The position numbers were made by a program, and so were the translations under genes. DNA of 56,739 nucleotides, the filler included, from Sluysia triapertura (Eukaryota), in NCBI GenBank assembly GCA_046118255.1. It is 4 parts of 4 records of this genome, joined end to end, with 100 filler letters (N's around TTAATTAATTAA, not from the genome) between each part and the next. Parts side by side here need not be neighbours in the genome. Positions count along the whole stretch, not along the records: positions 19,608 to 31,995 come from JBJNIA010114086.1; 3 more parts are not named here. One strand, given 5' to 3'. This document shows, piece after piece, positions 790-49,408 of this stretch. Positions within the stretch are counted from its first letter, which is position 1, and every line of letters begins with the position of its first letter. The notes below the pieces were generated by a model. It saw nothing but the letters and a program-made list of their open reading frames with translations. It had not been told where the DNA came from and made no database searches.

Positions 790-3549
790 AAAAGGAACAA
801 CTTTAATTTATATGGAAATAATTTTTTACAACTAACTTTATCTTAATATTTATATTTATTAATATAATATTTATATATAATTTAAATATTTTAGAATCTA
901 ATAAGAAAGATGATTTTATAAGTTTACAAATAAGAACTAATAAATTATAAACACTAAATTTTTTAATGAATATGTATAATTTAAAAATTTGAACAGTAAA
1001 GCAGATAATAATACTCTTCATCAGCCACGTTCCACTATCTAAAAAGGAACCAAAAGTTAAATTATCATTTACATAAATTATTTACTGTATGATTAACCAT
1101 AGGTCCAACGTTGCCGAATATTTCTGAAGCTGATATTCCTATGTATTTAAGTAAATTTGTAAGACTAGACACATGATCTGTGTTAGATATGTATTTTAAT
1201 TTATGATTCGATAACTGATTAACTGTGTGTGCATAAATACAATTAATTCCAAATTTTGTGTATCTACCATTTATGTCACTACTGTATGGATAAAGTGCTG
1301 TTCTAATACATTGATTCGAACCTAATTAATTATTGAAATAGTTGTGAGACAATGAATTGACAGGGACCGATGGAAAGTACATTAAATTCTTGGATGTATA
1401 GCTAAAATGACGACGATTATTAGGAACAGTATAATGATATACAGGAAGTATTTTCAAATCTTCTTTGTACTCGATACTTAACTGGGATGCATTTATTCGT
1501 AAAACTTTATTTGAAATTAATTTTAGGCTTGTATTCATTGTTCATATAATAAAAGATTTGATGATATCTTTATTTAGTAGATTATCTTCTTTACTTCGTA
1601 TGTCTGCTATAAGCATTCTTTTACGTGGGACGGAGTAATCGTAAACTTTGCCAGCAACTATTGGTGAGAACTTTACACTTTGATTCAGATCAATGACATC
1701 AACATGACTAATTATATCTGCTCTTATTCGAAAATTCAGCCTTCGTTGAATCATCTCAAATTTATCTTTATTATTTTCAAGTAATTCGGTACGAATTAGC
1801 ATCACAAATTCATAAAAGGCATGCTCTTTTAAATTTTCATTTGATCTATTCGCTTTTAAAAACGGATAACATTGAGAAAATATACTGACATAATGATCAA
1901 TGTTTGATCTCACATTATTGTCGAAACTAGTGGTGATAATTCTCAAATTACAAATTTCACGTTTCATAACATTGAATATATTTCCATAGCAATTTATAGG
2001 AGTAATAGTCTGCTTTAAATTTTGATTAAAAAATTCTCTTGAAACATTGACATTGAACATAGGATAGAGCGCAGGTAAATAAATATAAATGATAAATTCA
2101 TCATTGTTTTTTGAAATACTAATATATATACATTTTTGTCGTTCCTGAATATCATGTTCTCGATTATAGTTACATGATTTTAATAAAATAGTTTTGTTTG
2201 ATGTATTGGTAAATTGGAGTTCAATTGTTAAAGTCATTATATTCATATTTGTAGGTTTGATTGTTTGAAATCTCAGATTTGCAGTTGATATTCGTTTTAC
2301 GAAACGTTTGTCTATCATTAAATCTAGATAATCCATAGTATTTAACGGTGTCATTATATATAATTCATCATTTATGTTTTTACGATTTGAAACTAAAGCA
2401 TTATTAGCCATTTTAATTTATTTTTTAATTAAATGGAGTCACTATGTTGTTTTGTAGTAGTGTCCACACTGCAATTGGCTGCCCAATCAAAGCGAGTGTA
2501 AGAAATGACATTAATAATAATTTGACTAAGCAGTCAACAAAATGTTTTACAATAAGGACTGATTAGCTGTTTGGCAACAATGTGCTTAACAATACACGAA
2601 ATAAGTTGTCAACACTAACTACTATCAATAGTGACAATGCTGTACATATGAATTAAAAATGTCACCATTGATAGTAGTAGCTACCTAAATAAATAACTTA
2701 TAATTAAAATTTGTGATAATAATAATAATAACAACAAGAATGTTAGTTTGAAACATATTCTTCCTTTATATTCTTTATTTATTCTCAGTATATTTAGATC
2801 TATTTAAAGTAGTTAAATGTCTTTAGATGTCTAAAGGTTAAATGTTATGGTGTTACCAATTAGTGTTACGTGTTTGGAATGAAATTTTACGGTGTGGTTG
2901 TGATTCTAGTGTTATAAGATAATGCGTAAAACGTTTTAAATGAAATTTAAATGTGTATCAGTGATTTTAAATGTTACCTGATGTAATTATGGTAATGAGT
3001 GGAATGTTTTCAATGAATTTTTGATTGTCGGTTGTTCATTTGGTGGTGAATGTGTTTTTAATATTACGAAGGGTTTTCGATTATTTTGAAGGTGCAGTTG
3101 TACTTCTAATCTTGTAAGATAATGGTTAAGTGTTTTAAATGAATTTTTAAGTACTATTTAATGGTTTTAAATGAAGATAAGTTTGGGTGATGAAAACGTA
3201 TGATTTAAGTATTCTAATATAATATAACTGTTTTTTATGAATTTCTAAATATACATTGATGTTTTAAATGAAAGTAATGTTTGTATTTTAAAAGATTGTG
3301 ATTTGCAAATTTATTGAAATAGAGTAGTTTAATGGATGTAAAGAAGATAAATTATGGCCGATGTTTTGGTACATTCTAAAAGGTAATTGTGTAATGTTAA
3401 AAAGGATATGATTTTGGTTATGTTAGTATTGAACTATGATGAATTGTTGAATGTGAATTGTAGATTCTGAGAGTGAATGTGATTCTGTTGTGTTAAAAGG
3501 AAAAATTTTTTTTAAGATTTGTTAAAAGTAATAGGTTGGTTGCCACAAT
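790..3549 (+). mobile_element. Gene-carrying LTR-like cassette, copy A (left boundary uncertain)
   Basis: Antisense ORFs, ATTGG-N4-CCAAT (2474-2487), 19-bp inverted repeat (2618-2678), (AAT)n near 2717, then a G/T-rich tail. The tail aligns with copy H (2891-2950 vs about 31659-31720; 3354-3392 vs about 31830-31869). Confidence 0.6.
1326..2411 (-). pseudogene. Cassette cargo ORF (289 aa plus in-frame 70 aa after one TGA), UEV/RWD-like motif
   Basis: Intronless ORF 2411-1542 continues in the same frame (1538-1326) after a single TGA. It contains IYIYLPALYP, resembling IYLxxLYP in copies D and E. Confidence 0.55.
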
Positions 3550-3560
3550 CGTATTTCATA

Positions 3561-8634: not shown

Positions 8635-8750
8635 AACACAAATTTTATCTAAAACTAACGAACTTCCTGACTTAGTAGCAACGTCAATGATACATAGAAG
8701 AGTTGATCATTTATTAATTTCTCGTTCGCCATGAAGTAATGGTTTAATAA

Positions 8751-9443: not shown

Positions 9444-9766
9444 AAAATTCTTTTTGTTAATTTGGCAATAAATAATAAGTGCTCATAACAGTACTACAAT
9501 TTTTGATGTTGATTGTGTAATTATGATTCAACAATTTTTTAGTTGATAAACAATAGATTGTGGTTGGCCATCCAATCACGACTTCAAATTGATGATGTTA
9601 GCTATTTCTCACGTGCTTGGGTGGTGGTTAATAGTACAGTTTTGAGATGATGAACCATCATCAATATTGGCACATTAATAAAAATGGTGAACGGTGTCAA
9701 TATTGATGATGGTGGCAACTAATTTGATTTAGATTAAAATGAATTTATAAAGTAATTTAATGATTG

Positions 9767-9830
<64 letters not shown>

Positions 9831-11039: not shown

Positions 11040-13200
11040 GCATTATTAACGAATCAGCAACTTTATTTATGTTAAGATAAGTAATAGGTTAAATTATCAA
11101 TAAATTATGATCAGATTCTGTAATACCTGTAACAGTTCGCCACTTCTAAAGCGATGTTTATTTTCACACAAACTATTGCCACTTGAAATACACTTAGAAG
11201 TTGCTACATGCACTTCACAATCTTAGTTTATAATTAGTACAGTAATTAGTATATAATAACAATGAGCTTAAATCACTAAATTTCTTTATACAACACATCC
11301 ACTCAGTGATTCAATAACTTTGGTATAATTTAATATAAAGACATTTTCGAATAGCTTCTAATTAATGAAATATGTTTATTTGTATCTGTAGTGAACTCCA
11401 CATTTCACAACAAAATCACAAATGAACATTTCTTAGACAAACAAAACACTAAATAAATTACTCGATTCATTCAAAAAATAAACATAATCATCATATATAA
11501 TTATCATTAATTATGTTTATTCTTATCATAATTTCTATCACAATAATAATGTAACATTTTTGTAATTCTACCAACATTATTTCATTAAACTACATAATAA
11601 TTCTATTATAATTTTAATCTCACAATTGTTATCATTATAATTTTATTATCATCACTTTTTCACATTCTTCTTGTTTGCATGCGTGTGTATATGTAAATAT
11701 ATCTATGTATGTATAAATGTGTATTTATTTTCTGTATGTATACTTATTTATTTCTGTATGCCTGTATGCATCATAACTTCTACGTCAACCCAGCAAATTA
11801 ATATTACTAGCATAATTATCAATCCAATTAAATGGTCAATAATGATCAGAATCTTCGTCAAATACCAGTTAATTCATATTCAATAATGATGGCGACATTG
11901 AATGTGACGTTTCAATTGGAAAAGTTATGAAATTATGCTCTAAAATATTTTGATTTTTAAATTTATTTAAAGAACTTTCGTGAATTATTTATATTTTTCT
12001 AAACATGAAACACTCTTTGACTTTTACAAATATTGCTACCACATTAGAATAACCAGATGATATTTCTGAAGCATAAAGTTTTAAATCGTTAATATGAAAA
12101 ACGCAGAAGAAATATGTTTTGCAAAATTATGATTCAAAATGATTCAAATAATGTAACCTTTGAATACATTATAATTGGTGGAACTATAGTTGACGTAAAT
12201 TGTAGAATAAATTCTGAAGTTAATTTGAATAATCCCAAACTAGAAGGTATTTATAATTGTAGTATGAAAAGGACTTGTGGTTGTTTTGCTAGAAATACAA
12301 CTGATTTTTAAAAAAATTAGCAGTACAAACTTTAGCTTGTTTAGCTACTAATGCGAAATTTGAAGAAATTACACCATCGTCTTCTAATGAAATAAGTAAA
12401 TCAGTATATACTAAGACAAAACATGCAAGGTCATCTTTAGAAGAACCACTATTTCAACTTAATACGAAAAGAGCTCGTTTAAACTTAAACGAGAATGCTG
12501 CTCAGTCAAATCTAGACAATTTTTCTCATATTGCTACTGCTTCTTTAGATGATTTCGATTTATCTATTCAAAATTATCAAGTTATGTTAATAAAAGTAAT
12601 GGAAATACTCGTGTTTCTTCGTTTACGGTCTCACGATTACTTAATAACATAAATTCAAATGCTACACATTGCAAAATAAGTGGTGATACGATTATACCTA
12701 ATAGGTCTAATATACCTTATATATAGGTTTAATATAGGTCTAGTACCTAATGTACCTAATATACCTAAAAGAAGGTGTCAGTCAGATAATTCACAGAATA
12801 CTAAATTTGTTCTAAGTAGAATAAATGAAAAATATAATAATGTATTTTATATTCCCAAGCAGTCAATTTTTTAAGATTTCAACATAAAGAATGATCCATC
12901 AGACGTACCAAGAAATACAATAGATTTTTCCAGTATAAGTCGGTCTATGTCTTTTAGTTGGCTAAAAATAACGAACTAAAGGATAATTCAAAAAATTGTA
13001 CATGGAAGTTGGATAGTTGTAATCAAACTAATATATTTTCATTTAATTATTGTCCAAATTGTGAATGTGGAAACTTTTTAAAAAAGAAGTCGTCAAATAA
13101 AAGGATGCGAAGCTTTGAACAATATTACTAATTCAAATTGTCAGTGCTGCTTTTTCAAATCTAATAAAACACTATCTTATTCCGTAGTGTAATTAAAATA
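11040..13200 (-). mobile_element. Cassette copy C (second tail subfamily, inverted) with frameshifted cargo on + strand at about 12005-12652
   Basis: 11330-11790 is the reverse complement homologue of 24500-25060 (e.g. CATTCAAAAAATAAACATAATCATCAT vs ATGATAATTATGTTTTTTGAATG). ORF 12114-12311 and a long open frame about 12311-12652 point away from the tail. Confidence 0.55.
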
Positions 13201-13203
13201 TAT

Positions 13204-14244
13204 TGTTGGGATTGTCCAGTTAGTGCAAGAAAGTAGATAAAATGGCAAAAGAATTTATAATATATATAATGAAAAATGATATAAAATATCTGAAATACGT
13301 TAATATAAACATAATTAAATATTCCTAGAGCAAAATAATGAACAAAACATGTTTATAATCATTTTGAAACCGAAGAACACCTTGGAGTTCCAAAGACCTT
13401 TGTAAGGTATTGAGACCATTATGAAGATTTCAATAAGGTTTGGAAAGATGTCTTGAAGTATGAAGATACCTTTGAACTTCTGAACCTTGGAATCACTTAG
13501 ACCTTGATGATATTTTGGAACATTTGAAGACTTTTGAGGCATTAATAAACTTTTGAAACCTTCAAGTAGCTTTGTAAAATCTTTGGAATCTTTAAAATGT
13601 GCAAGAATTAAAATCATGGTTATTAATATTAAAGATAAATTTGAGACATTAATAATTAAATAAAAAATTTAAAAAAGGAATCAGAGTGGTGAAGGTGAAA
13701 ACATATTATATAACAACTTTTTAACTATAACAAAACCTTTAAACTTAGAATAAAATAAGTTAAAATAATTATTTAATTAATTAAAATCTTAATTAATTTA
13801 AGAAAAATTACGTTTGTGTGAATAACTTTTGAATGAGGGGTGCTATGATAAAATTGTAGCTGTACTTGTATGTGTATTAAAGAGATCTTCCAATGAAGAT
13901 AAGGTCTGACCGAGTTCATGCAAAGAAAGCCTCCATATTGAACAAAGTCGAATTTTAATTAATTTTTAATTTAAAATGCAAAAATTTTTCATTTTTAGAA
14001 TGATAAAAAAATGATGAGTTGGGTATGGAGTGGTTGCTATCAAGTTGGAGAATCCGAAAATTGTTGTTTGGGGATGAGAACCTTAAACATTGAGTGTGAG
14101 GAATTGACATTGTCTGGTAACTGGTTGTATATTTTTGAGACATAAACGGTATATAACTTATTATCACTGTGGATTATGTATAGATTATTATTATATCTCA
14201 ATGAAATATTCATCCTGGCTTCCAAATATTATTATTTATAATAC
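13204..14244 (+). mobile_element. Solo LTR, family L1
   Basis: Begins TGTTGGGATTGTCCA and ends ...TATAATACA. Collinear with 27067-28292 (GGAATCAGAGxGGTGAAGGTGAAAACAT; TGACCGAGTTCATGCAA). Confidence 0.75.
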
Positions 14245-14637
14245 ATATTCAGGGCTTTTTTAATGCAAATATTTGTAGATTATTGTCATGATTTTGAATT
14301 CTCCTCTTGCCTTTTATTAGGCGCTAGAGTGTTAATATAGGATTATAATTCAACGAATAAAATGAATTCGAAGGAATACAGGAATCAGCTCTTAAATTGG
14401 CAAGCGATAACTGTCCTTATCATGCATCCAATGAAAATAAAGAACATTTCTTATCATCTATGATAATCAGTGACGGAAAATGTTTTCAGATGCTTTGTAT
14501 ACAAGTGCACATACGGAAAGTATCAGGATCTTCGAAGCCATCTTTACAAGCTAAAAGATACATCGAAAAAGTAATGTTAGACTTCATAAAATGGACTTCT
14601 CGCTTCACACATGTGCAGTTCGATGCTCTGACCACTG

Positions 14638-17010: not shown

Positions 17011-17362
17011 TAATTGTTTAAGTAAAAATGAGATCTCAATGACATTGTATCGTTAAGAATTAAAAATCACGATGGTAATCTATAAATTATTGTTACGGAA
17101 GTAAGATGTAACAATTTATACAGAATGCACAATAATAATAATAATGTGTTACATTATAAACCTTAGAAGCGTCCCCATTATAAATCTCCACGACCTTCCC
17201 TATACCCTTTGTTCCACCACTGCTTATGTTTCAAAAATAGACAACCACCTATTAGAAAAAGTCAAAACTAGAAGATTAGGAAATATCTAAGACAAAGTTA
17301 AATTTATTCCAGAAATATGAAATATTGTGATATTTAAGCAGTACTAATTATTATTTACTTTG

Positions 17363-17418
<56 letters not shown>

Positions 17419-17439: not shown

Positions 17440-19310
17440 AAAAATAATAGTAGTATCTGATTAAATTCATTTCTTAAAACAGATGATGACTTCTGTTAGC
17501 GCATAAGAATACTTATTTATTATTCATACACAGACTAAAAATCATATTTTATAACATCTCATATTTTACTTTTCAAACTCATTCGAGTTTTTAATATTTT
17601 AAAAACAGAATTTAAATTCACAATTTCGCAACATTAAAATCAGAGTCAGCGTCTTAAATTATCAAATGTACATTTTAAAGCTAATTCAAAACATTTCAAT
17701 TTTACAATTCTTCAATATTCATATCAGTAATACCATTGAAAAACACTAAATTCAAATCTTAAAATCAATTATAATATTACAACCAAAATGGAATTTCTGC
17801 TACATCTTTAAGTACACCTTCATTCATCATTCCTTTTTCTATCCTTTTAACTGCGTTGTTATGTTTTAGTCATTACTGCATAAACTTTTACAACAATTTT
17901 ATTTAAATATTTTAAAGAAAGAAAGAAAAGAATTAAAGAGTTTTGTTTATGTATTTATTGTATAAAATTTAATTATCATTATTATTATTATCATTTTATT
18001 TCAATTATTATCACCACTTTTAATTAAAATCCCAATTTATAATATAGCAACTGCCACATTAGACTGAGTAGATGTATCTACACTACTGACAGTCACTATT
18101 AATAGTTCATTACCAACCAACCAATAGGAAGGTCTCATTATAAAGTTGATTAAGCATTTGCTGAAAACAATTAAAAAATAAGATAGTCAGTAAAATAAAA
18201 ATTGTACACTCACAATTGAACAAAAAATTAAAAGTCAACAACTTTTAAAGTAAAAATTATGTAGAATAATTTTTAGCGAGAAAAGATCAATAATTTTATC
18301 AGAATTACTCAAATAAAATTTGATAGTACATCCAACGTTTCTCATAAATTAAATTAACAAAAGGTTGAGTAAAAAATTGTTCTCGATATAATAGTAGTTC
18401 GATCGAGTTTGTCCACGCGTTAATTTCAAGAGTTATATCATATATCACAAGATCGATCATTCATATTAAGTTATTCTAACATTTTCTTTGAAGTTTCTCG
18501 AGATGATCTTAAACATTATAAAGAACCTAATTGTTAATAAAATAAAGAGGAAAGTTATTCAAATGGAGTTTTATCATTTAAACAACTTAAAGATTACTTT
18601 TAGTTTTAATAATGTAAAGATTAGATCTAAATTATGCAGTATTTCAATATCTCGGAATCAAGGAGATTCAAAAAAGGTTACCGAATTTATCAAAGTATGT
18701 CAAATATGGAATCCATAAGTTACAATGTGATTTATCAGTCATCTCGAGAATTTAATCAAGTCAATATAATCGAGTCTATTATGAAGCTTATTCGTCAACA
18801 AATTCATCTTAACATGCCACATGTACTTTATAGAGAGTTTATGCAATCATGGGACGATATGATGGATAAAATTGAAGTCAAATACAGGCAAAATGCTGAT
18901 TTGACCAATTGTAGAAACGATAAAGTCAAATGTGGAATTATTAACTCACGTAGAACCTTGCTTACACACAAGCACACCGCGCAGTGTCCATATTAAGCAG
19001 ATAAATTCGGGATATGTCGTAAATGTGGTGCATCTCTCTACTTTCACAATGTTTCACAAATAAACTATGTTGGCATCAAAAAAGGCATTCTATCAACACG
19101 TCGAAAGTCTAAGCAAATTATTTGTTTGTACAATCAATGATATCAATCACAACCTTCAGACCAACAAATATCAAGGTCAAGCCCTTATCAATATTGGAGA
19201 CAATCACGATGCCGATAATGTAGAATTTGAAGTAATTTACATTTCTTTGTTAAACAAACATGTGATCTTTATTTTCTTTTATTGATACGAGATCCACTGA
19301 CAAGGAAGTC
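17440..19310 (-). mobile_element. Cassette copy G (inverted) with fragmented cargo ORFs on + strand 18488-19285
   Basis: A/C-rich tail (reverse complement similar to the A/H tails), (TTA)n at about 17973-18012, hairpin 18062-18094, CCAAT at 18121, then ORFs. Confidence 0.6.
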
Positions 19311-20718: not shown

Positions 20719-21734
20719 ATGGAAACCGATGATTCTGAAGTACCTGATGTTGAAGGAATTACAAGTGTTAATTATAATGTTACAATTCACCCTATCGTTA
20801 TTATGAGTGTTTCGGATCATTGCATGAAATTTAAATCAGAAAATTCTCAACTAAAAGTGGTAGGAGCTCTTATGGGTACTTATAAAAGTGCTGACATTGA
20901 AGTAATAATATTAATTAATTTAAAGTTGTAAGATTTTGAAAGTTATAGAACTTTTGTATGAGAACAATAAGTTAAATGAAGAATATCTTAATCAAAGGTT
21001 AGATCAAGTTAAGACTGTTGAACCTGATTTGGAATTCATTGGTTGTTACTCAATTGGTGCTAAGTATGATGAAAGTGATATGGCGATTTTTGAGGTGATT
21101 GTTCTTTAAAATGCTATTAATTCATACAGGTTCAAAGAAGATCTGAATGCATACTTTTATTAAAATTTGATATAGAAAAAATAAGCGGAAATGAGCACTT
21201 ACCAATAAAATTATACGAAGCTGCAAATGATTCTACTGGACACTGTATATTCAAACCAATTAATTACATATTTCATTCTGAAGAAGCTGAGGCTATTGGA
21301 ATAAAGCATATATCTGTGAATAAGCTGACTATTAGCAAAAATGTTGCTGTATCTATGGTAATATTTTGTTGTATAATTTATTTCACTAGATACAAGACCA
21401 TCTTCAACCACATCAACAAGCAATAATAATGCTACAAAATCGTATTGATTATTTAGTAAAATACTTAGAAGCAGTTGAAAACAATGAACTTCCAATTGAT
21501 TATTCAATTTTAAAGGAACTAAATACAATAGTCTCATCGCTACCAATGAGGTGTAATTCTGAATTTCAAAATCAAATTTGCAAAGATACTAATGAAATTT
21601 GTTTAACTAGCTTACTTTCATCTATGGCTCAATCGTTGTACGTAATGCAGAGCTTATTAACAAAACAAACTTATATTGAACGTGATATAATGAAAAAAAC
21701 CCCCAATTTACGATATGATAGTATTTATAATTAA
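20719..21734 (+). CDS. COPS6: COP9 signalosome subunit 6 (MPN- domain); exons 20719-20901, 20933-21094, 21130-21357, 21390-21734; 305 aa
   Basis: Motifs VTIHPIVIMSVSDH, VVGALMG, LEFIGCYS, SEEAEAIGIKHI, DHLQPHQQAIIMLQNRI. Three GT-AG introns of 31, 35 and 32 bp splice to one open frame of 918 nt. Confidence 0.92.
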
Positions 21735-22919
21735 AGTTATGCATTTTAAGTTTATATCTACTTAATTGTTTATCAACACATGATGTCATACTTTCTATTA
21801 TTTTCGTATTTAATTTGTTTCGTTTTGTAAGTTCAATTTTAATACTAAAATGAGTAGATTTATTTTCTGAAACAAAGTAATTGGAAAAACGTACATATCA
21901 GATTTTAAAGACAATTTAGCACTTTCGAACTTCAAAAGAAGGTAAATTATAAATTAATCATGCTAGATTACGTAAAATGACGAAGTGCTTATTAGTGAGA
22001 TTACAGTCAGTACTAGGTTGACTTAATGGTGGACCTGCATTTAATCCGTTTAATGTGGGATGAAATCCGTATTAAAAATCTGAAATTAAGAGTATAATAT
22101 TAATCTACAGGCTTAATCTTCACACAAAATTAAAAGTAAATGTTATATGTTAAGCAATGGTGATATTTATATAACTATTGTAAACCAAAAACAATAGTTA
22201 ACAGAAACAAAAGATGTTCTATTCGATTTTGATAAGTTATGTTTAATTTTATTTATTTTTGAATATGTACTAAAAAATTTAAGAATTTAATTAACAAAAA
22301 GCTATCGAACTTTAATTTAAAAATAATTAGTGAAATACAAAGTTTTTTTATCAATGAACTAGGCTTAACGCCTTTACAAAGTAACGAGTTTAATAAAATG
22401 ACAAAATTTGAGAATTTATTTATAGAAAAAAATATATAGCAGTACTCACGTCACTATAAGCATAGAATCTAGAGAATGGAGTTACTAGTGATACGAATAT
22501 CGACAGTACAATACTGTTTCAAAAACGAATAATAAATGACATGAGTAATGGGCAATAGTGTTTTTTAGTCTATCAAAATTAAGATCATGAAACCAATTAA
22601 ACAAAAACTAAACGAAATTGAACAATGATTAGTAACAAAATACTGCAGTAAATCTTTTTTAGTCAATAAAATTCGAAAATGACTAATGAGACTTTCTCCG
22701 AACAAGAAATAATTTGATATGAACAAAACAAGGCAAAGAACGAAATAACTTCAAACCATGGTAACGATAAATATTATAACCGATTTTGTGGAAAACCTTT
22801 ACTTGAATTAACATTACTATTATAATTGAAACTATCGATCCATGTGTAGCAGCAGTTCGTGCAGCTTCAATATTGATTGGTAGCTTTTGGTTGTCTAGAT
22901 TGTGAAGTTTCAAACTTAA

Positions 22920-23310
22920 ATGGAAACTCTTGTTAACATCTACTCAATTCCTTTTAATACTAATGCTACATTTCCTGTAAACGAATTCCATTCTAACAAG
23001 GCTTGAATGTTCATTTTTCCAAATTCATTTCTATAATCGAAATTTTTCTCTATAGTAGCATCACTTGTAGACTTACAAACAACCATTGGTGCTATCAGTG
23101 GATATAAATCTTCCAAATATATTTGTAATTCTAAATTCACAGTTTTATTAGAATTATTGATGGCTAATTTAATTGTTATTTTGATTACTTTATTTTTAGA
23201 TTTGATAAAATCACAGTGATCCATTGATAAATCAGTGATGTTTTAAATATTTGCCAATTTAATTATTTCATCTTTAATTTTTTCTCTATTTGGATAATTG
23301 GTAAAATTAA
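22920..23310 (-). pseudogene. TSG101/Vps23-type UEV domain, intronless, with internal stops
   Basis: NYPNREKIKDEII...VIKITIKLAINNSNKTVNLELQIYLEDLYPLIAPMVVCKSTSDATI...GKMNIQALLEW aligns almost without gaps to the TSG101 UEV as recalled ([31 protein letters not shown]...GKIYLPYLHEW). Confidence 0.75.
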
Positions 23311-23899
23311 GTTAATCAAACATTTGTTAAGTAGCATTATTTCATAGCTTTATTGATTTTTTTAATTTTAATTTATACTTTTTATTTTATTTTACAAGAA
23401 ATTATTGGATAACAAGGAGAGCAGATAAAGTACTGATTTAATAGTTTGTACATATTTGATTTCTAGTAAATTGTGTTATCTCATTCTACATAAATAGAAT
23501 TTCTGTATGTTTTTGGATCTCAGTATTTTTATCTATTATTTTACTTTCACTAGAATTTTGGTGAAAGTAGTTATTTTCTAACACGATAATATTCCGTGAC
23601 AACTGTCGGCAAATGGTATGTATTAAAAAACTTTAATAATCATGTTTGTATGCTATTACTCAGTGTCAATGATTTTATTGGCGCATCATTTGCTTCTTTT
23701 TTGATACATTCTTTTAAAATTTGAGATATTTCTGATTAAGCATTAGTGTTTCTTGATTATTGTCGATAAGTGATTTTGAGCTTTCTTTCAATAAGGGACT
23801 AGTTTTTTCTATTTATAACAAAACCATTCGTATTTATTATATTAGCTCAGTATAAATTACAAGTATTATATTTCTGATTGTTTACTCTATTTCTATTTG

Positions 23900-24447
23900 A
23901 AATATGTAAATTTAGATTAACGGATTATAAATTGTTCTTTATAGATTCTAAAATATTTGTGGTCAATTCGATTTTCAACATCTACTCTTCGCATCTTACG
24001 ATTTATATCGCTAATGAAATCATTTGGGTTTATGCTTAACGGTTTCGGAGGTTCTACACAAAATTTCTACTTTTCCAAGTGTTTTAAGCTTCTACTGTTA
24101 TTAGCGTGCGATTGTTTCAAATCACCTGCATTGTTATTGTTACTTTGATTAACTCCAATGATATTATTATTGTTAACAGTAGTCACTGATGAAGACGTAG
24201 GTAAGACATTATAATGATTTGTAGAGTTACGATAGCACGGTAAAGTGACATCAGTTGTTATAGTGACAATATTATTTGACTCCACAGTTGATAAAGGCAT
24301 GTCTTTACCATTTGATACGAGTGAAATTGAAACTGATAGTGTCGGTGTAAATATTGTTTGATGAGTGTTAGTTAAACTACGACTATTACTAGTATCTAAT
24401 GAAAATGGAAGTGATGATTTGATGATTGTATTATTTGAAACATGCAA
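23900..24447 (-). pseudogene. Ser/Thr/Asn-rich cargo ORF of copy D
   Basis: 126-aa low-complexity ORF (24447-24067); the frame continues after a TAG (KFCVEPPKPLSINPNDFISDINRKMRR). Confidence 0.4.
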
Positions 24448-27066
24448 GGAACCAATTAAATTAATATCTGTGCCCTTACGAGAAACATACTATTATATAA
24501 GACAGTTAGATTGAAATGTTGGAGTTGTTAAAAAATCAAATTCTATAACAGATACTAAATATATACTTTATAGATCGACACATAAACAGATATATACATA
24601 AATATATAAACTGGAAAAAATGAAAGGATAAGAAGAAAGATTAGTAATTAGGATAAAAGAAATAATAATTATAACAATAACGTGGTTATTATGTTTATTA
24701 ATACTGAATTGTTGGTGTTGATATGAAATTTATTATAAAAGTTATTATTTGATAATCATCTTATATAACAATAATGACTATAATTATTATATGTAGTTTA
24801 ATACGCTTTGAATTGTAATAATAATAGCTGTAGTTCATGATAATTATGTTTTTTGAATGAGTTTAGTAATTTGTTTAATAATCTGTGTACATGTGAAATG
24901 TTTTTACATGATGAAGTGTGATGAATTTTATGTGATTTCCCTACAATTGTCTTTAAGGAATCTTATTTTAAAATGACAATTTATTTGATTTCAATTTGAA
25001 TTTATACTAATTCTATTAAATCTCACTTTAAATTGATATAAAGCATTATAATCTTAATGGTGAGATTTTAATTTTATTTTTGAAAATAATTTTATTTTAA
25101 ATGAATTTAAATTAAATGAAAAAAACTTTAAAAATTTGGAAATTTAAAAATAAAAAATGAATGAATATTATGTTACTTATGTTACATAATGATTAAGTTA
25201 AATTAAAAATTAATCAAATTGAAATATTGATAACAATCATCAATAAAACATAGAAGATGCTAATATTCGTGATGTAATTAATTTATGAAAATTGATTAAT
25301 TATAAGGATCCCAATGTAAGTAACATTAGTGTAACGGCGCATTGAGATCTATCCGGAAATTTTCAATTGTTATTTGGTAGATTTCTGAGAAATATGTTTT
25401 AAATTAAATATTTTGTTTAAATATGTTATAAATAATATTTTAAATAAATCAATCTCCGTAAATACAAAATTCTTTCCTTCCGAGCACTTTATTTTTCTAA
25501 AATAGTGACATTTTTATCTTTTAAAGAGATGCACGCTTATTATTTAAGACGTTAACAAACAATAGATTATAATACATGCCATTCGACCAAAAAAACTATT
25601 ATTAATTTAGCAGCCGAATATGTTTGTTACATATTGATAAGTAAATCTTGTATTAGAAAGAAACAGCCGAAAATTACCGAACATTTGTATTTAACGTAAA
25701 ATAATACAAAACTCAAACATAAAGTTTTAAATGATCTAACTATTATCGGTATATCACTTGTGTTAGGTATTTGTTCTGCAATACAGAGAGTGCAATAATT
25801 AAACAATATATTATTCAAATTTATAATTGATAATAACTCAAGTATAAATTTAGAAAAACGCGCTTAAAGTTAGATTAGTCAAATGCAGTGACAACCATAT
25901 TTGAGTAATAACATTGGTTATCATCTGTAATTTTTCCACAATTTAATACATATTTTAAATTTAAATTTACTGAGATGTACTTAAAGAGTTTAAATTCGAT
26001 ATATCATTCATTGAATGCCAGTTTTGCATAATAAGCTTATTTAATTTATAATTTATTTTAAATTACTATCGCATAATGTTTTATTTGTGCTTTTGAGATT
26101 TTGTAGTTAAATATAAAATTGTGAGTAATACAGTTGCATTCATTTTTATTGATATTAATATTATTTTGGGTACAAAGTTAATAATTTAAATTGTCACTTA
26201 ACATTTAGTACCTAATATATTAAAGTTATTTTAGTAATCTTTGAACTACATAAGTTTTAAATGCTTAATATTAAAATAAAATTAATGTCTGATTTTAAAA
26301 TCAAAAATAAATTAGATTGGACATTATAACGTTTTTAAATATTTATTCATGAAAAATAACACTAAAATGCATTGAAAACATGTTTAATAGGTCATTTTTG
26401 AGTATATTATTAATATGTTATAAAAAAATCTTTTTATTAAAAAAATTATTCTTGAAAATTGAATCAATACTCATTTCAATGCGGATTGAAACAATTTGTA
26501 AGGAAACGAGCATAAAAACTATTATTATAAACAATATTGACAGATATTTTTGGTCTTATAGAATTTAATAACTTTAAATTCAAAACTCAGAAAATCGAAA
26601 TAAGATTCAACTGAAATTATGTTTTCTATATCACAATTCATACAATTTATCAATTAACACAATAAAACTTAAATTTCCCAAATAAATGTTAAATTACTAA
26701 TCAAATAACTTCAAATTCACTTTATAGATTACTATTAACATAAAATTACACGAATAAATAAACTAAGGGCGGTACAACTGTAATGAAAATCTGAAGATTA
26801 AAGAAAATTCTTAAGAAAACATTTGAAAAATATAATAATAATAATAATGTAACGACTAACGAATAGTGCTCATTTTCATGTGTTAAAATGTCATGTTTAA
26901 AATAATTTTAAAATCATTATAAAAAATTGTTGAGATTATAAAAATTTTGTATTAATTTAAAGTGAGATTACATAGAAATAATATAATTTCAAAATTTAGT
27001 AACAAATAACAATCAATTTTAAATTGAAAATGTATAAATAATCATTTTAAAGTGATTTTGTATAAA

Positions 27067-29585: not shown

Positions 29586-31365
29586 TGTTGCGTCTTTTAA
29601 AATTACTAGTTATGAAAACTCAATATTAGCTTAAAAAGAATCTTAATAATTTAAATAGTGACTATATCAAATATAGTTTTGCAGCAATTCTCTTACTTAA
29701 TATTAATAACTATTCCCCCAAAATTAAGCTCTTAAAAATCAAATAAAAAATAAGGCAATAATTTACTATTAAACAAAAATCAAATTAGAATTTATTGTTA
29801 TTAGTATGACTTTCCACCAAATAATAACAAAATAACTAAAATGACAAAATTAACAATGGCGTTTATAATAATATTAAGAATACTAGAATATAACTGAAAA
29901 ACTAGGAGTGGCGCAACAATCACTAACAATATCAATATCTAGAAAGTTAATAATAATTATGCTACTTAAGTATTTTTCGTAAACGTAACTGAGAGTAATC
30001 ACGATTATAACAAAAATTTTTGGGCAGAGATCCTTTCTAAAACCTAACAGTAATATTTAAAGTAGAAATATTTAATGTTTCGATAAAATAAATTGCGTAG
30101 GATATTTCCCACAAAACTAGTTTAAAAATGGCTGAAAATAAAATCAAACAACTTACAATAAAATTAGCACAATATTTAACTTATATTAAAATTATCTCTG
30201 CCATATCGGGAACACTCACCATTCTGCATTATTCCAAATAAGCATAAACCATGTTTGTAATATTTGAATTGATGAGCATAAGGTTGTAAATTTTTAGGCG
30301 AAGATATGTTGTCACTATAGTAACGTTTGACATTGTCAGTCTTTGTTTTTACTTTTACCATGTTTTTTACTAATGATCTAATTTTACTTGTGATCACATA
30401 CGAATCGACATCAATAGGGATATGTATACATTTATCTATTTTCATCACGATATACGTTGACGTATTAAGATCGAATCATCTTATTTGAAAATCATGAGAT
30501 ATTTCACTGAATTTTCTTGTTTTGCGTTTGTTTGTCTACTAATTTAACAATGATTTGAAGGCAAAGAGCGAATTTCGATAAGTTTCGGGAATTTCGAATC
30601 TATAATTGATTCTTTAAAGAATTCTAATATTTTAAATTATAATTGATCGAACTGTACGATTAACTCTAATTTTAACGAAATATCATCAAGAAATTCACTT
30701 TTAGATAGCATAGTTTCGATAAACAATTACTTTAAGTGAAAATAGATTCAAAATTGATATAAATTCTTAGAACAATAATTCAGATTTTTGTCACCTTTAA
30801 AATTCTGATAACAAATAATTATCTCGTTTTATACTTTACACTTTTAAGTTTTATTTACTAATAATGATCTTTTCAGTCACTCGTAAGTGTATTGTTTTAT
30901 TTTTACGTCACTTTTAAAATTCTAGTGTATATAATTATAGGAATCGATCAAATGTGCGTTCAATTTATTTTTAACAGTGACTAGTTATAGTATGATGATT
31001 GGTCGTGATTGGATAGCTAGTCAGGTAATCAATATACAAAGAAATTCTCATTCCGCACACTACGCCGCAAATACAAATAATGAAGAACAATTATGTCGAT
31101 GATTGGCGTCCAATTGGATGAGACGTCCAATCAATTGAAGTAAACGACGCTTAGTAACTGTCACCAGTTGACGGTTTGATTTAGTTTAATGCACTGACAA
31201 CTGTGAAGCCAGACTATTTACATTAATCAATAAAAAGATAATAATGTAGTAATAATAATGATAGTAATGAATAATATTAACTAATAATAATTATAATAAT
31301 TGAATTGATAATAAATAATATTAATACTAATAAAGTAGTAATAATGATATATAAAATACAAATAA

Positions 31366-31398
<33 letters not shown>

Positions 31399-31872
31399 TA
31401 ATAATAATAATAATGAAAATTAAAAATAATAAGATAAATACATAAACTTCTTTTATAATCGGTCTTCACGTCATGCAGTCTTATAATTCTTTGAAAATAA
31501 AATTATTTTAATATTTTTAAATAAAGTTATTTTAATTGCAATGTCTAAAATGGTTTAAAAGTGTTAAGTTAATATTTAATATTAGAGACTGAATGTTAAA
31601 AGATTGTAAGCTTGAAATGTTTTTGGATTGATTTTAAGATGAGTGTTCGAAGGTTTAAGGTGTAATTGTGATTTTAATATTATTAGATAATGCGTAAAAT
31701 GTTTTAGCTGAGTTTTAAAATGTAGATTAATAGTTTTGAAAATAATTATGATTTTGTCGTTAACAGATTGTGAATTTAAAATGTTTTGAGATATGAAAAA
31801 TGATTTTAGTGAATTTGAAAGAAATGAAATGTAGCAATGGTTTTGATAGATTCTAAAAGGTAGTTGTGTCTT
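29586..31872 (+). mobile_element. Cassette copy H (3'-truncated) with decayed antisense ORF 30176-30448
   Basis: Starts TGTTGCGTC. ATTGG-N3-CCAAT at 31102-31114, hairpin 31161-31206, (AAT)-rich tract, and a tail homologous to copy A. Confidence 0.62.
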
Positions 31873-31995
31873 TTAATACTTTTATTTTCCCAAATTATTA
31901 AAATCAAAACTCAGTAACTAAATAAACTCAAAACCTCAGTATATTTGTTATATTATCAAAACTACAATCAGAGTATATAAATTATAACAATACGA

Positions 31996-32095
31996 NNNNN
32001 NNNNNNNNNNNNNNNNNNNNNNNNNNNNNNNNNNNNNNNTTAATTAATTAANNNNNNNNNNNNNNNNNNNNNNNNNNNNNNNNNNNNNNNNNNNN
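31996..32095. other. Artificial contig linker
   Basis: N44-TTAATTAATTAA-N44. Confidence 0.97.
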
Positions 32096-32185
32096 GCTGA
32101 TAGCTCAGTGGTAGAGCAGTCGGACTGCGCAGACAATGGTCCCGGGTTCGATCCCCGGTCAGTCCCTTTTACGAAGTCTAACAAT
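32096..32185 (+). mobile_element. tRNA-derived SINE head (Cys-like tRNA ancestry possible)
   Basis: A box TAGCTCAGTGGTAGAGC and B box GGTTCGATCC are present, but the anticodon arm pairs poorly. It is followed by the SINE body TTTTACGAAGTCTAACA also seen at 6481-6502 (minus). Confidence 0.75.
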
Positions 32186-33159
32186 TTTATGCAATAAATT
32201 ATTTTATTATAAAAGTGTAACAAATTATTTTAACATATTTTTATACTAAATATTTATTTTTAAATGTTATTTATACTAAGTAAATCAATTTTGCTTTACT
32301 ACGCCATCTTGGATTTTAATAAAATCAATAATTGGCATTGACAATTTAAGTCTCATAATTAGTAAATCATCGGAATTAGTAAATCAAGAAACACAATTCA
32401 CAAATATGAAGTCACAAGTCAAAGACATGTTATTCGATTCGAGTCCATGATACGCGTAAAACTTAAAATTGAGTTAGTACCATTTTAAAATTTTTCTAAA
32501 ACTGATGATTTATTATTAGAGTGAAACTTCTAATAATTTAATTGTTTATTGATATTATTACACTGAATTGTTGATACCAATTACATTTGTATGTTACATG
32601 TTTCTTATATTTGCAAGTTTATTTAAATAAAGTTTACGTTTATATGTTTGATATATCTCTACGTATTTGTTGTATTTTTAAATTTGTACATTTCCTAAGT
32701 TTGTTATATTTTTACGTTTCATTAAATAAAAATTGTTTTGTTCATTGAGATATCGATAAGTTTTAAAGTAAAAGAAAAGGCATAAATAAATGTTGCTTAC
32801 TGTCGTATTTACAGCTACGCCCTCATTGAGTAGTAAACCACATACTGTAAACGAACCCAGAATATTAAAATTATTTTGATAGGTTAAGGTAAAAGTAAAT
32901 AGAACAAACACAGAAAAATTTGTCGCCCAAATTGGGACCAACGACATTAAGCATCACATACGATTAAGAAATAGTTGTTATTTAAGTTATTTAAGTGAGC
33001 TTCTAAGTAATCATAATTAAGTCTCTTAAGTAGACACATTTTGATTGTGTAAGCTATAGAAGCTATAAGATTAAGTGAGTTATTAATTTTATATTGAAGT
33101 TATTTAATTATTAAGCATAGATAATAAAGAAATTAGAAGTGGTCTTATAAGACATTATT

Positions 33160-33560
33160 CTGCAGAAAATATTACCATTAAAAAGAAGAAGACGATTAAA
33201 AATGAATATAGATATGGTATTAGCCACAGATCTTGCAAAGCATGTCTCTTTATTAGCTGGCTTGAAAACAATGCTTGAGACCAAATCAATATCTGAGTTT
33301 AAACAGTTACAAAGATCGAATATGATATTAAAAGTCTTGTCCGTTACGCCGATATCAGTAACCCGACCAAAGAATTGTTTCTGTATGAAAAAAGGATTGA
33401 TCGTATTACTCAAGAATTTTTTCTTCAAGGTGATAAAGAAAGAGAACTAAAAATAGAAATTACAGCTTTATGTGACAAAGAAACAGCCGTGATACTAGCT
33501 TCTCAGATATCATTCATTAGGAAACATTTATTGAACTCGTTTATGACGAATCAATTGATT
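33160..33560 (+). pseudogene. cAMP phosphodiesterase (PDE4-like) catalytic-domain fragment, frameshifted
   Basis: IDMVLATDLAKHVSLLAGLKTMLETK, then a frameshift to LVRYADISNPTKELFLYEKRIDRITQEFFLQGDKERELKIEITALCDK...SQISFI. Confidence 0.85.
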
Positions 33561-33720
33561 TTGCAGAAATATTAGCAAAAAATTAGGAAAGGTATGACGA
33601 GTTTGAAAAGCAAGATGAAAAAGAAAAACAAATAAAAGAAAGCTGTTTAAACAAAACTGTTGCGACTTCAATTTCTGTTTCAGTGAAATCAGTGACCTGA
33701 AATAATTTAACTTTACGCTA

Positions 33721-35951
33721 TGTTTGATATGTATATTTGTATATTTCAATATTTCAATAACAGATTATAAATTGAAATAAATGATTAATTGGATTAATAT
33801 TTACATCTTATTGAAACTAAAATGATTAATTAGTTAATTACTTTATGAGCTTTTAATATTTACATAAACTAAATTTGTAATATTCAAAATTAAATTGACC
33901 AAATTCACAAATCTACATTTAATTTACAATATTTACAATCCCTTTATCTCGAAGCTGCAATATCCTTTCAGTTACTATTTAATCCGACAACCCTAGCATA
34001 ATGCTGAGTTCTCCAAACAGCGCCTGGTGTTGTATAATGTATTTAATAATATTTAATAATATTTTATGAACAGTTTTAAAGGTGATTCGACATATAAATC
34101 TGAAGTTTTGGCTTGAACTGAAGGCTTATTATTATTATGCAGCTTAAAGTTTGAATTTATTATAGAAAGAGTATACTCAGGATATAAACTTGTTAGATAA
34201 ATACATGTTTCGAGATTTAGTTCACGTTTATAAAGATTATTCATGGTCACGTATAAAATTAGACTTAAAGCCACGAATGTGTTTCATCAAGTTTCATTAA
34301 ATGTTCAAACTTATTTGTTTTAAAGATTTTATAAAATTTTATAAAGTTTCGTCGTTATCGTAAAACTTAGTTTAAACCTATACATCTTGTTTTGGGATAA
34401 ATTCAACAACTTAGTATTAAAAGAGTAAATTACATGTACAAAACAATTATTATAACATTTTATTACATAACTAAAAAATTGGATTGCAAATTTAATTTTT
34501 AATAACACTTTAATCGTATTATTTATTTCTGAAATTCTGATCTCACTTCTCCATTGTTCTTGTTGCATTTGCATGGTCCAGTTGTATTGCTTATCAACTA
34601 AATAATAATCAAATAAATATATATATTTAAAACTAAAAAAGTCATGAAAAAAATCAAGGAAATAAGGAAACTTTATGTTAAAATTTACTTCGTTGTTGAG
34701 TGGCTTCATGTCTTCATAATTGTGTAACAGAGCTGCATTAAATGAATGAGGAACACGGTACGATTCTATACACTGGCAACCATAGTTTTTGAACAATGTT
34801 TGACTTTTATAATCCATAGGAATTTTAATCTTTTCGTTATTAAACATTGAGTTTATTGCATACTGAACGATTATTTTAAACAGTTTTTCTGAAAAGAGCA
34901 TGTTATTTGTGTCATCTTTATTAAAATTTTCGTTAGTATCAGCTGAAAAACTAAAATTGCGTGAATATTCACTTTTATCTATAATCAAAGGTGTATCGTT
35001 GTTCGCTAAAACTTTCAATGTATATGTCATATCAGCATATTCCATATCAAACATTGATTTGTTTGGAAAATTGATTAGTTTCACTTTTGATTTTGATAAC
35101 GTTAATGAGCTCATTTGAATTTGCATTTCTTTTCGAACACTATCATTAATTGATGAACTGCTAATTAAGGTATAATTTGAAAATACATCTAATAGATAAT
35201 ACAAATCATATTGTAATTCATTTTTTTGTAAACGGATACTAAATGGGTGCGATCTAATATGTTTCATTGCAAGTCGTTTATTTGCTTTAAGAACAGTATT
35301 GTTAATCACAAAACAAACTTTAGGAGAATCTAAAATGTCTCGTTTGATTATTCGTTTTAAATCTCTATGGATAAAAATATCATACTGGTTGATCGTCGAA
35401 TCCATACATGTACGTTAGATATATACATCAAATTTGCATCGTTAGTTGGTATTAATGCTAAAATTCCATTTGTTTGACCAATGATTTTGATTAGATTCCA
35501 CATATTGATCAGTGACAGTATGTAGCTTATGTCTTTCCTTTTTAATCCCAATATCAATTACGCAGAGTTGGTTTATAATATTTTTAGATTGTCTCTAAAA
35601 TTTTTAATTGTCTGGAAAAACTTTTTTACTGACCACAAAATTTTTAATTGAGCCTCGTCTGGAATTTTAATTGTCTACTAAATTTTTATTGTCTAGAAAA
35701 TTTTTAATTCTGACAATTTTTAATAGTATCAACGAATTTTATTGGTCATCCAATCGAGAGCGTTAAAATTGTTAAATGCAGAATTTAGTCTCGATTTTAA
35801 TTGAAAAATGATGAGACAAAACTGGTTAGCGACAGCCATCAATGTTGACAGTCTAATGAAAAATGTACATAGACTGTCATCGCTGGTGATGGCAGTAACT
35901 ATATTAATCGGCTTTAATGAAAATTTTTATAATTTTGTGTTAAGGGAATTA

Positions 35952-36008
<57 letters not shown>

Positions 36009-36880
36009 GTAATAATAATAATATTGTTATTACTATTATTAATAATTGAAATTAAAATACCTGAATATCTTTAAACTTATACACGAGCTTTATCTGTCTG
36101 TTTCTTTAATTTCTACATATGAATAAAAGGAAATGAAACTGGTAACATGTTGTGAAGGAACAACGGCAACGAGGTAGGATACGTCTGCGTTTCGTTGTTG
36201 CTTCTTGCTGAGATGGTGAACTGTTTAAAGCTTGATTGTTTATCTTTAAATGAAATGGAAATGAATTGAATAATAATTGAAAAGAAGAATATTAGGAAAG
36301 ACTTATTGAAATTTATTAAAAGTTTGTAATTAAGATAAGATTTGATTCTTGAATATGATAGTTTGAGATGTTTAAAGTTATTTTAGTTTTAAAAGACAAT
36401 TACAAAATAAATCTCAATATATTATAATGTTATTACTAATAAATGTTAACGATGAATATGTATATATGAATTAGATTTAGGTTGGTGGAGTTGGGTAAAG
36501 ATTTTAATGTAAAAGATTTATATTTCTGAGGTGCTTGTTAAGGTTTTTGAATGGTGTTATTGCGTTTATGATTTGTGTATTTTATTGTGATTGTGGTTTG
36601 TTTGTTGGAATATCTTATGAGTGAATGTTGTGGATTATTCGAGACTGAATGTCGGAGTTTGTTGTGCTGTGGATGGTTAAAAGTGTTAGTTGAATTGTTG
36701 ATGTTTAGAAGTTAATAAGATGTTATAAATATGGAGTGTTGTTTATGGTGTTTTTGTTGGTATATTTCGATAGTAAAAAGTGTGATTGTTTTGAAAATTG
36801 AATTTTGTTGAAATTTAATTTGTGAATATTAAAAATGATATTTTGATAAATTTTAAATTATGAGTGTTGACCACTACAAT
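33721..36880 (+). mobile_element. Gene-carrying LTR-like cassette, copy E
   Basis: Possible TGTTTGATATGT start. Antisense ORFs, ATTGG-N4-CCAAT (35741-35754), hairpin (35835-35893), (AAT)n, AATAAA, hairpin (36151-36208). The tail is collinear with B and ends TTATGAGTGTTGACCACTACAAT. Confidence 0.7.
33980..35557 (-). pseudogene. Cassette E cargo gene (about 500 codons, frameshifted), C-terminal UEV-like motif
   Basis: ORFs 35557-35357, 35405-34329 and 34274-34053 are consecutive. A 10-bp duplication TTTATAAAAT near 34330 causes one frameshift. NLETCIYLTSLYP matches NLELQIYLEDLYP of copy D. Confidence 0.6.
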
Positions 36881-38309
36881 TTATACTTTTCTAACGAACA
36901 TTTTAGTCAGGTACCGTAATTTTAAATTAAACTTTTACAAAAATCGATTAAATAGATTAAATCGATTAAATCGATTAATCTCATTATATTTTATTATTAA
37001 CTATTTACCGTTATTGTGTATGCATATTTTTTTAGTATCGATAATATGATTATATTGGAATTTTTGTTTAATCATTGAAAATTTGTTGTAAGGAACACCG
37101 TTTTTAATGCGGACGAAAAATTTTTTCAGAAAAGCTGAGTTTTTAATTATACCGTAGTAAAATCTTACATAAAATACCAAATATTATTAATTAAAGAATC
37201 AATTACAAACAAGTTTAAGATTTTATGGTAAGTCTCCACTGATTATTCTTGCCGATACCTACAAGCTAGCCCTTAAGTGTATAAGTCTAGGATCGTAGGG
37301 TATTCACGAATCATATACTTTAAACTGACAAAATTTTCACTTTATAAAATGATTCGTAAATTCGATAAAAGTCTAAACTTTATAAAACTTTAATTGATCT
37401 CTAAACTACTTTCACTTATTATGCAATATTAAAACTTTATAATTGGTTGCTTTTAAGTGTTTAACTTTTAATTAATCAAATATTTTCTAAACCTAAAATA
37501 AATTATCCTTATATGTCTTTGATGTTAAAAATCGAAGTGAGAAACAAATAATTATATTTTAATAATTATAAAGTTATAATTATAATTTCCAAAGTTATAT
37601 TTTAATATACTGTCAATTTCAATTATTGAGGAAACTAATTTTATTTCTTTAAAATAATTTAGGATATTGTACTTACTCATAATATGTTTATCAATGTTTC
37701 TAGCACAATATTCAAAATAGTTATCAATTTTCTAAACACACATTTAATCAATTTACTGTGATTTACTATGAAACATACCTTTGTATAGACTATTTTTCAT
37801 GAGAATTGTACCACGGCCAAAAGTTCTTAACTATTTTCGTATAATTAAACATCAACTTTACCCTATAATCAAATATAAAAATATAATCCTATTCTATATA
37901 TATTTTGCAATTATACGACCAATTTCTTCTATATTATAACTTTGACTATGTAATTTATTTATATACATATAATTTATTTATTTATGTTTATTATTTATAT
38001 TATATGCGTATGCTATTGTTTATTCTTCATTTCTATTTTTACATATATGTAACATTTTTCTTCAATAAATATATTATTAGTTTACATATATTTTAAATAT
38101 TTGTATTTTTAAGCTTTTCTTGGCAAATTTTATTTAAATTATTCTTTATCTTATTATTATTATTGACAATATGCAATAAAAAATAATAAAATATCAACTG
38201 ATCCATGATAGGTTTGTTGTAAACCAATCATCTGACTTCATTTCATTCAAATAATTTTATTATATAAAAAACATTTATAAAACTAAATTTTCATTTAAAT
38301 TAATTAATA

Positions 38310-49344: not shown

Positions 49345-49408
49345 TTTTCTTTCTTTAGCTATTTGACTTTCTATTACTTTTTGATTTTCTACAATTTCTT
49401 CATTTTCA

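Follow-up and report, generated by a model that had tools for sequence, protein, structure and literature searches.

Does the DNA at positions 22680..23310 belong to a family of mobile-element cargo genes derived from the UEV domain of TSG101/Vps23? The first-pass annotation had proposed such a family for the element at this site (D) and for two others (A and E). A host UEV domain would have been retro-captured, amplified and diversified inside mobile elements, possibly to act as ESCRT/ubiquitin decoys or adaptors. The window, meaning the whole 56,739-nt stretch of Sluysia triapertura DNA analysed here, consists of four contigs joined at 19508, 31996 and 43043 by linkers of N, TTAATTAATTAA and N, respectively. 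A, D and E each come from a different contig. The labels B, C, F, G and H were assigned in this analysis, as the first-pass annotation gave no coordinates for them. The GC content is about 25%. The surroundings of the three elements are as follows.

20720-21734, plus strand: COPS6 gene with candidate introns of about 24-35 nt (Pfam)
38304-39968, plus strand: protocadherin-like ORF of 554 codons with cadherin repeats (Pfam)
33151-33572, plus strand: fragment of a PDE4-type phosphodiesterase, intron-free and split over two frames
43391-43882, minus strand: isolated fragment of the oligosaccharyltransferase STT3
7674-9482 and 46585-47235, minus strand: long orphan ORFs B1-B3 and H, with no family assigned
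About 48900-55600, minus strand: degraded LTR-retroelement pieces, with an aspartyl protease and two gag-like stretches resembling each other
56138-56739, 14104-14322 and 17227-17418: related repeat pieces, one of them followed by a (TAA)n tract
4041-4490 and 5040-5520, plus strand: remnants that look pogo/Tigger-like by eye
32094-32166, plus strand: degenerate tRNA, with a second, related stretch at 6482-6564 (minus strand)
10942-11004 and 32808-32878, plus strand: common repeat of 60-70 nt, before the leader of C and before the PDE4 fragment

The animal genes present are COPS6 and the protocadherin-like ORF. The intact C-terminus of COPS6 is identical to the human protein at 23/91 positions (about 25%, a hand count from the alignment), and the host evolves fast by this comparison. 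Fast evolution combined with short introns would suit a reduced parasite, for instance an orthonectid or a dicyemid, for which the accessible text of PMC6543705 gives median introns of 57 and 27 bp. The PDE4 fragment matched Pfam in its two frames (E 4.3e-6 and 4.4e-17) and PDE4 in the PDB; the STT3 fragment matched Pfam at E 8.6e-5. The occurrence of an intron-free, frameshifted PDE4 fragment and an STT3 fragment in one window suggests that this genome commonly carries stray pieces of host genes. A C-rich tract lies upstream of the STT3 fragment, which a 19-nt tandem repeat adjoins.

The related repeats at 56138-56739, 14104-14322 and 17227-17418 had no Pfam match; by eye, they resemble the 3' end of an L2/CR1-type LINE. 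The pogo/Tigger-like appearance of 4041-4490 and 5040-5520 was likewise judged by eye, and these remnants had no Pfam match. The single Rfam match in the window was tRNA-like, and the two tRNA-like stretches may represent the head of a tRNA-derived SINE. Among the LTR-element pieces, a weak match to a Monjiviricetes fusion glycoprotein was seen at 49850-50080 (E 0.0011, below the cut-off). A PHROGs search of 11 ORFs gave one marginal match (H, E 0.0085) and none for A, D or E.

A disabled UEV domain of TSG101 type

22915..23323, minus strand: D, a pseudogenised TSG101-type UEV domain with an approximate 3' end, three in-frame stops and a frame change in its last helix
22943..23242, minus strand: stop-free core of D, 100 codons without an intron, colinear with TSG101 residues 48-119

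Several searches agreed that D derives from the TSG101/Vps23 UEV, as had been proposed. Pfam profiles had been suggested as a check, and the UEV family (PF05743) matched 22943-23242 with 34.7 bits (E 1.8e-8), above its cut-off of 27. The matches to RWD (E 0.004) and UBC_like (E 0.027) were both below their cut-offs. Among PDB sequence matches, the best 7 of 11 were TSG101 (E 0.014-0.021). A search of 1.84 billion representatives returned two matches, both TSG101-type UEV proteins; one is a TSG101 that carries two UEVs, the other has four in 1258 aa (P0002, P0003). Their tandem arrangement indicates that UEV duplication occurs in other lineages too. A database UEV profile, consisting of six UEV repeats from two proteins, was run on 1890 six-frame tiles of the window. 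D scored 49.8 bits and the next region, a cadherin stretch, 10.3 bits. In hhalign, D matched the six repeats with a probability of 96%, a score reached by 0/40 shuffles. The identity of D is 13-27% to these repeats and 19/72 to human TSG101 (hand count from the alignment). A word-index homologue search with D, which covered longer proteins only, found none in 194 candidates, and the same search with P0002 returned the query itself alone (45 candidates); both are weak negatives.

The domain described by the first-pass annotation as intronless, stand-alone and UEV-like at 22680..23310 is thus present, intron-free over about 130 codons, but broken and differently bounded: on the minus strand it begins with the ATG at 23323 and ends near 22915, not at 22680. 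In-frame stops occur at 23314, 23245 and 22942. The last helix shifts to another frame near 22950-22930, and allowing this shift raised the score from 50.3 to 56.4 bits. No coiled coil or Vps23 core was found in three frames of 22300-22945, and tblastn of the window gave neither a TSG101 C-terminus nor a Vps23 core. In a simple simulation, three stops corresponded to about 10% neutral divergence, which alters about 22% of residues. Because the host itself is very divergent, as seen in COPS6, the low identity of D is no sign by itself of selection for a new function.

We also weighed whether D could be a functional or recently functional host gene, either TSG101 or a paralogue, with stops that reflect very small introns, a changed genetic code or a mistake in the assembly. 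COPS6 has candidate introns of about 24-35 nt, a 36-nt in-frame GT-AG stretch covers the stop at 23314, and the base pattern of D still looks coding-like (purine 0.68 at position 1). However, excising the 36 nt would cost part of the aligned first helix, and the stop at 23245 lies within no potential GT-AG intron of 24-75 nt, so splicing was rejected as the cause of the stops. The long ORFs of the window (cadherin with 531 codons, A and E1) contain no in-frame stops; the code is therefore standard, stops are not read as sense, and a changed code was rejected as well. No TSG101 C-terminus follows D. A functional gene at this site is thus very improbable, and D is very probably a pseudogene of TSG101 origin.

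Candidate relatives of D among the orphan ORFs

1542..2408, minus strand: A, an intact 288-aa orphan ORF with a predicted helical C-terminal half
34056..34283, minus strand: E2, a stop-free stretch of 76 codons with IYLTSLYP at 34202 and a weak likeness to D
34329..35414, minus strand: E1, a long orphan ORF in the frame of E2, without UEV signal

The core peptides quoted earlier for D, E and A were all present in the window, and they share the motif IYLxxLYP (at 2084 in A and 34202 in E). This motif occurred exactly three times in the six frames of the window, in A, D and E2, compared with a mean of 0.03 in 100 block shuffles. The motif had been chosen post hoc; therefore, all patterns of six fixed letters within eight were tested. 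In 22 hand-chosen candidate ORFs, IYLxxLYP was the sole pattern of this kind common to three elements, and none of 200 shuffles gave any. When all 202 ORFs of at least 50 aa were used, triples made of common letters appeared in 31/40 shuffles, but none was as rare as IYLxxLYP (0/40); the expected number of triples that rare was 0.021. The triple therefore exceeds chance, at about p 0.02 after post-hoc correction. LPxxYP, which had been offered as a signature of the UBC/UEV/RWD fold, is uninformative alone, with one occurrence (in A, absent from D) versus 0.38 expected. Comparison of the window with itself by tblastx gave no A-D-E pair among the matches listed.

A is real coding sequence, because 288 stop-free codons are expected by chance only 1.4e-7 times. 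Over approximately residues 9-150 it aligns with D in five colinear blocks, interrupted by two insertions of about 20 and 29 aa and by one 16-aa deletion. Under cheap gap extension, a setting picked after the likeness had been noticed, the alignment from the first helix to the last had 32 identities in 92 positions, and its score was reached by 4/4000 and 0/4000 shuffles. A was also the best of 13 real ORF pieces against D, scoring 87.8, with the other 12 at 60 at most. When the motif was masked, the score was reached by 39, 6, 18 and 16 of 1500 shuffles at the four gap settings used. For each D block, the best match without gaps fell in order along A (4, 15, 159, 0 and 5 of 400 shuffles for the five blocks, which were themselves picked after the fact and taken from the alignment). 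With standard gaps and the motif unmasked, the likeness was at p 0.03-0.07, and BLASTP of A against D gave an E of 0.20.

Searches beyond the window did not assign A to a family. Against the database UEV columns, 153/300 shuffles were as good as A, and 18/40 shuffles reached its hhalign score. No Pfam family matched A at E<=1, none matched its N-terminal 163 aa at E<=10, and database UEV, RWD and UBC profiles gave no match to A. The word-index search found no homologue in 357 candidates (a weak negative), and the ESM Atlas contained no match at 0.9 or higher. Confidence was low in both AlphaFold models of A (mean pLDDT 47.7 and 41.7), too low for fold searches to speak for or against a UBC-like fold. 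With these models, Foldseek found no match at E<=0.001. VIA gave best Z values of 6.0 (rmsd 3.1, 65 aligned), 5.3 (3.1, 89) and 5.5 (3.8, 89), to unrelated helical or beta-sandwich chains, and no UBC, UEV or RWD fold was among the 50 matches listed for each. A look-alike of the Vps23 core seen by eye in the helical half was rejected, since 314/400 shuffles did as well; neither a coiled coil nor a Vps23 core was found in A.

Because the five colinear blocks match even with the motif masked, A is probably a remodelled relative of D, and we consider homology between the two fairly probable on these comparisons. The proposal that A is a UEV relative thus kept its footing in the likeness to D but gained no UEV, RWD or UBC profile match. 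Since A resembles D and not TSG101 in general, the likeness would point to a lineage-specific ancestor.

The case of E is slighter. Six stops within about 16 codons part E1 from E2, and about 14 open stretches of 76 codons are expected by chance. Against a profile of UEV plus D, E2 had an hhalign probability of 7% (0/40 shuffles); against the database-only UEV profile, 5/40 shuffles reached its score, and its total UEV-column score was reached by 11/300. The likeness of E2 to D consists of the motif with its preceding strand (p 0.013), and nothing remained once the motif was masked (611-981 of 1500 shuffles). A and E2 had no resemblance outside the motif either (595-1267 of 1500 shuffles with the motif masked). 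Database profiles gave no UEV, RWD or UBC match for E2. Other frames did not complete E2 to a full UEV, and none contained the front part that it lacks (best 108/1000). The YPxxxP and terminal GxxxL..EW segments are kept in D and absent from A and E2. Homology of E with D is possible on this evidence, and the earlier assignment of E to the UEV relatives retains the motif and its preceding strand but finds no backing in database UEV profiles.

A profile of D, A and E2 detected no further member: its best score was 6.4 bits, and B, C, F, G and H were all without one. B3 reached p 0.02 against D with standard gaps and p 0.19-0.65 with other gaps, and was dropped as a relative. The view that the cargo is a UEV-derived family therefore narrows to D, probably A and possibly E: a UEV family spanning all cargo genes is not supported, and a small family including A is, on balance, likely.

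Upstream modules and the question of mobility

2460..3560, minus strand: upstream module of A, with a C-rich leader, (ATT)n, a hairpin at 2596-2685 and a GATTGG..CCAAT box at about 2483
35640..36893, minus strand: upstream module of E, with a leader, (ATT)n, a hairpin at 35821-35910 and a CCAAT box at 35750
9470-10770 (minus strand), 30985-31990 (minus strand) and 17440-18200 (plus strand): further dispersed copies of the module; unrelated orphan ORFs follow the box in the dispersed copies, 2460-3560 and 35640-36893 included
24548..25022, minus strand: C-rich leader upstream of D, related to 11308-11757 (C; z 7.3)
24067..24489, minus strand: D0, a 140-codon open frame rich in Ser, Thr and Asn that lies upstream of D
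23395..23606, plus strand: repeat fragment upstream of D, 78% like 4289-4487 and 70 bp from the ATG of D

A, B, E, F and C' have in common a module composed of a C-rich leader, (ATT)n and a hairpin with arms of 20-25 bp; the GATTGG..CCAAT box is clear in A, B, E and F. The sequence of the hairpin arms varies and their pairing is kept. Of the seven 90-nt stretches with the most stable DNA folds in the window, four are hairpin or box regions of the module. The leader of E is 65% like that of B (9893-10770), and leader pairs were related at z 29 (B-E), 8.9 (A-F) and 5.9 (F-C'). When each module core was left out in turn, B was recovered significantly (E 3e-4), A, E and F weakly (E 0.15-1.6) and C' not at all.

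D had been taken for another copy of the element that carries A and E. This could not be confirmed, as D lacks their upstream module: an nhmmer profile of the five module cores had no match near D. Its own leader matched that of G weakly (z 3.1) and those of A (z 0.5), E (z -0.1), B, F and C' not at all. The copy at 4041 of the repeat upstream of D resembles, by eye, the start of a pogo/Tigger DNA transposon, and it had no Pfam match. We found no transposase, termini, target-site duplication or poly(A) tail tying D to a mobile element. The only retrocopy hallmarks at D were an A7 run at 22349 and AT-rich repeats expected by chance, though decay could erase a poly(A) tail or target-site duplication. 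Non-autonomous Helitron/Helentron copies lack Rep/helicase, and Pfam found no Rep/helicase in 20 + 139 ORFs. Transport of the three in one mobile element is unproven. The hairpin-CCAAT modules are possibly an undescribed element family, and possibly of more interest than D itself.

Competing explanations and known systems

Whether D or A could act on ESCRT or ubiquitin depends on the binding sites of the UEV. According to the accessible text of PMC11670305, the PTAP pocket of TSG101 consists of Tyr63, Tyr68, Ile70, Pro139, Phe142 and Ser143; according to that of PMC7073217, M95A impairs PTAP binding and N45A impairs ubiquitin binding. At TSG101 positions 63, 68, 70 and 95, D has Asn, Val, Leu and Ala in the PDB alignment (residues 139-143 lie outside it), changes that are read against human-type TSG101, not that of the host, and may be a family trait or the host norm. 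Some of the PTAP-pocket changes may also postdate the death of D. Residues 34-43 of D, in the region of Asn45, contain no Asn; the printed alignment begins at TSG101 residue 48. In the D-A alignment, A lacks 16 residues matching about 83-98 of TSG101, including the Met95 segment. Because the pocket residues are lost in D and the Met95 segment is absent from A, a PTAP-holding decoy in the style of Tsg-5' is unlikely for both. The ESCRT/ubiquitin decoy role put forward earlier is unlikely, given that D is dead as well, and in its classical form we judge it very improbable from the residues present.

The explanation that we favour, with modest confidence, is that D is a dead TSG101-type UEV copy from a small set of fast-evolving paralogues, of which A is a remodelled member. 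D itself is dead and makes no working protein now; it duplicates, without introns, the front part of a TSG101-lineage gene in which the UEV is encoded. It would have come about when a piece of a host gene was captured through RNA or DNA, as may also hold for the PDE4 and STT3 fragments. The paralogue set would be lineage-specific, with A the sole intact candidate in the window. A would then consist of a D-like N-terminal half, remodelled by the insertions and the deletion, followed by a new helical domain, and the dispersed hairpin-CCAAT module before it would be its probable promoter. If A works, it is most likely a repurposed protein-binding module with a new partner, which would not use the PTAP pocket of TSG101.

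It is possible, though doubtful, that D is simply a lone decayed copy of host TSG101, comparable to the PDE4 fragment, and that the motifs of A and E, as AT-rich orphan genes, reflect chance or the convergence of strand-turn sequences. The missing UEV, RWD and UBC matches of A and E, the missing A/E module at D and the loss from A and E2 of the YPxxxP and GxxxL..EW segments would all fit this reading; the simulated divergence together with the fast host rate can explain the low identity of D, and a processed Tsg101 pseudogene is known in mouse (accessible text of PMC7073217). It is at odds with the improbability of the motif triple (0/200 shuffles; expectation 0.021), with a D-A likeness that survives masking of the motif, and with the order along A of the best ungapped matches of the five D blocks. 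An extended form of the favoured explanation is unlikely: here, dispersed elements with a C-rich leader, microsatellite, hairpin and CCAAT promoter would carry a radiating TSG101-derived family, with A living and D and E2 dead. The UEV fold would have changed so far that profiles no longer recognise it and would have been joined to new domains, and an ESCRT component would have given rise to element-borne adaptors with new surfaces, possibly acting on the ubiquitin/membrane machinery of the organism or its host.

Quite improbable is the original proposal in full, namely a retro-captured UEV amplified in one mobile-element family, with products serving as ESCRT/ubiquitin decoys or adaptors, for example for the budding of enveloped elements. 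A and E do both lie behind a real dispersed module, and stand-alone ESCRT pieces can inhibit, as the accessible texts on Tsg-5' (PMC3766686) and retroCHMP3 (10.1101/2020.08.30.273656) describe. The LTR remnant with its below-cut-off fusion-glycoprotein match (E 0.0011) could also be cited, but it lies on another contig. D, however, is dead and outside the module; the PTAP-pocket residues are replaced in D and a segment is deleted in A, and D residues 34-43 are without Asn. Moreover, B, C, F, G and H contain no members, and no transposase, termini or target-site duplication was found.

The certain part of these results, a dead TSG101 fragment, is an ordinary find and a member of a known domain family. 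If A is UEV-derived and the modules are mobile, a conserved ESCRT domain would have been turned into an element-carried orphan gene family, and this would explain where some orphan genes of a fast-evolving animal come from. We met no such case in the accessible parts of the literature searched, a coverage that leaves out most subscription journals.

Like the TSG101/Vps23 UEV (PF05743; PDB 1KPP, 4ZNY, 3OBQ), D aligns from the first helix to the region of the last strand and keeps the YPxxxP and terminal EW segments. Unlike it, D is interrupted by stops and by a frame change, is not accompanied nearby by a proline-rich region, a coiled coil or a Vps23 core, has replacements of Tyr63, Tyr68 and Met95, and contains no Asn in residues 34-43, the region of Asn45. 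The modules of A, B, E, F and C' resemble non-autonomous Helitrons/Helentrons (DINE-1/HINE), as far as the accessible text of PMC4067079 describes them, in being dispersed, in combining a microsatellite with a stem-loop and in lying beside gene-like cargo. They differ in that their hairpin is internal, has arms of 20-25 bp and precedes a CCAAT box with an ORF after it. The modules show no Rep/helicase, D lies outside them, and the comparison is made on five diverged copies without defined termini, for which reason the modules are not classed as Helentrons here.

The nearest precedents, in the parts of the sources available, are the mouse processed Tsg101 pseudogene and retroCHMP3. Mouse tsg101-ps1 (PMC7073217) is, like D, an intron-free, non-functional TSG101 copy. 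D differs from it in being detectable over the UEV part only, with no poly(A) tail or target-site duplication found, and in probably having a living, much altered relative in A. Copies of retroCHMP3 have target-site duplications and a preserved ORF of about 155 aa (10.1101/2020.08.30.273656), and Tsg-5' works by preventing the interaction of Gag with Tsg101 (PMC3766686). D has no intact ORF, and D and A lack the PTAP pocket; the likeness of D to these two is that all three are truncated, intron-free ESCRT pieces, and retroCHMP3 and Tsg-5' thereby provide the precedent for a decoy reading.
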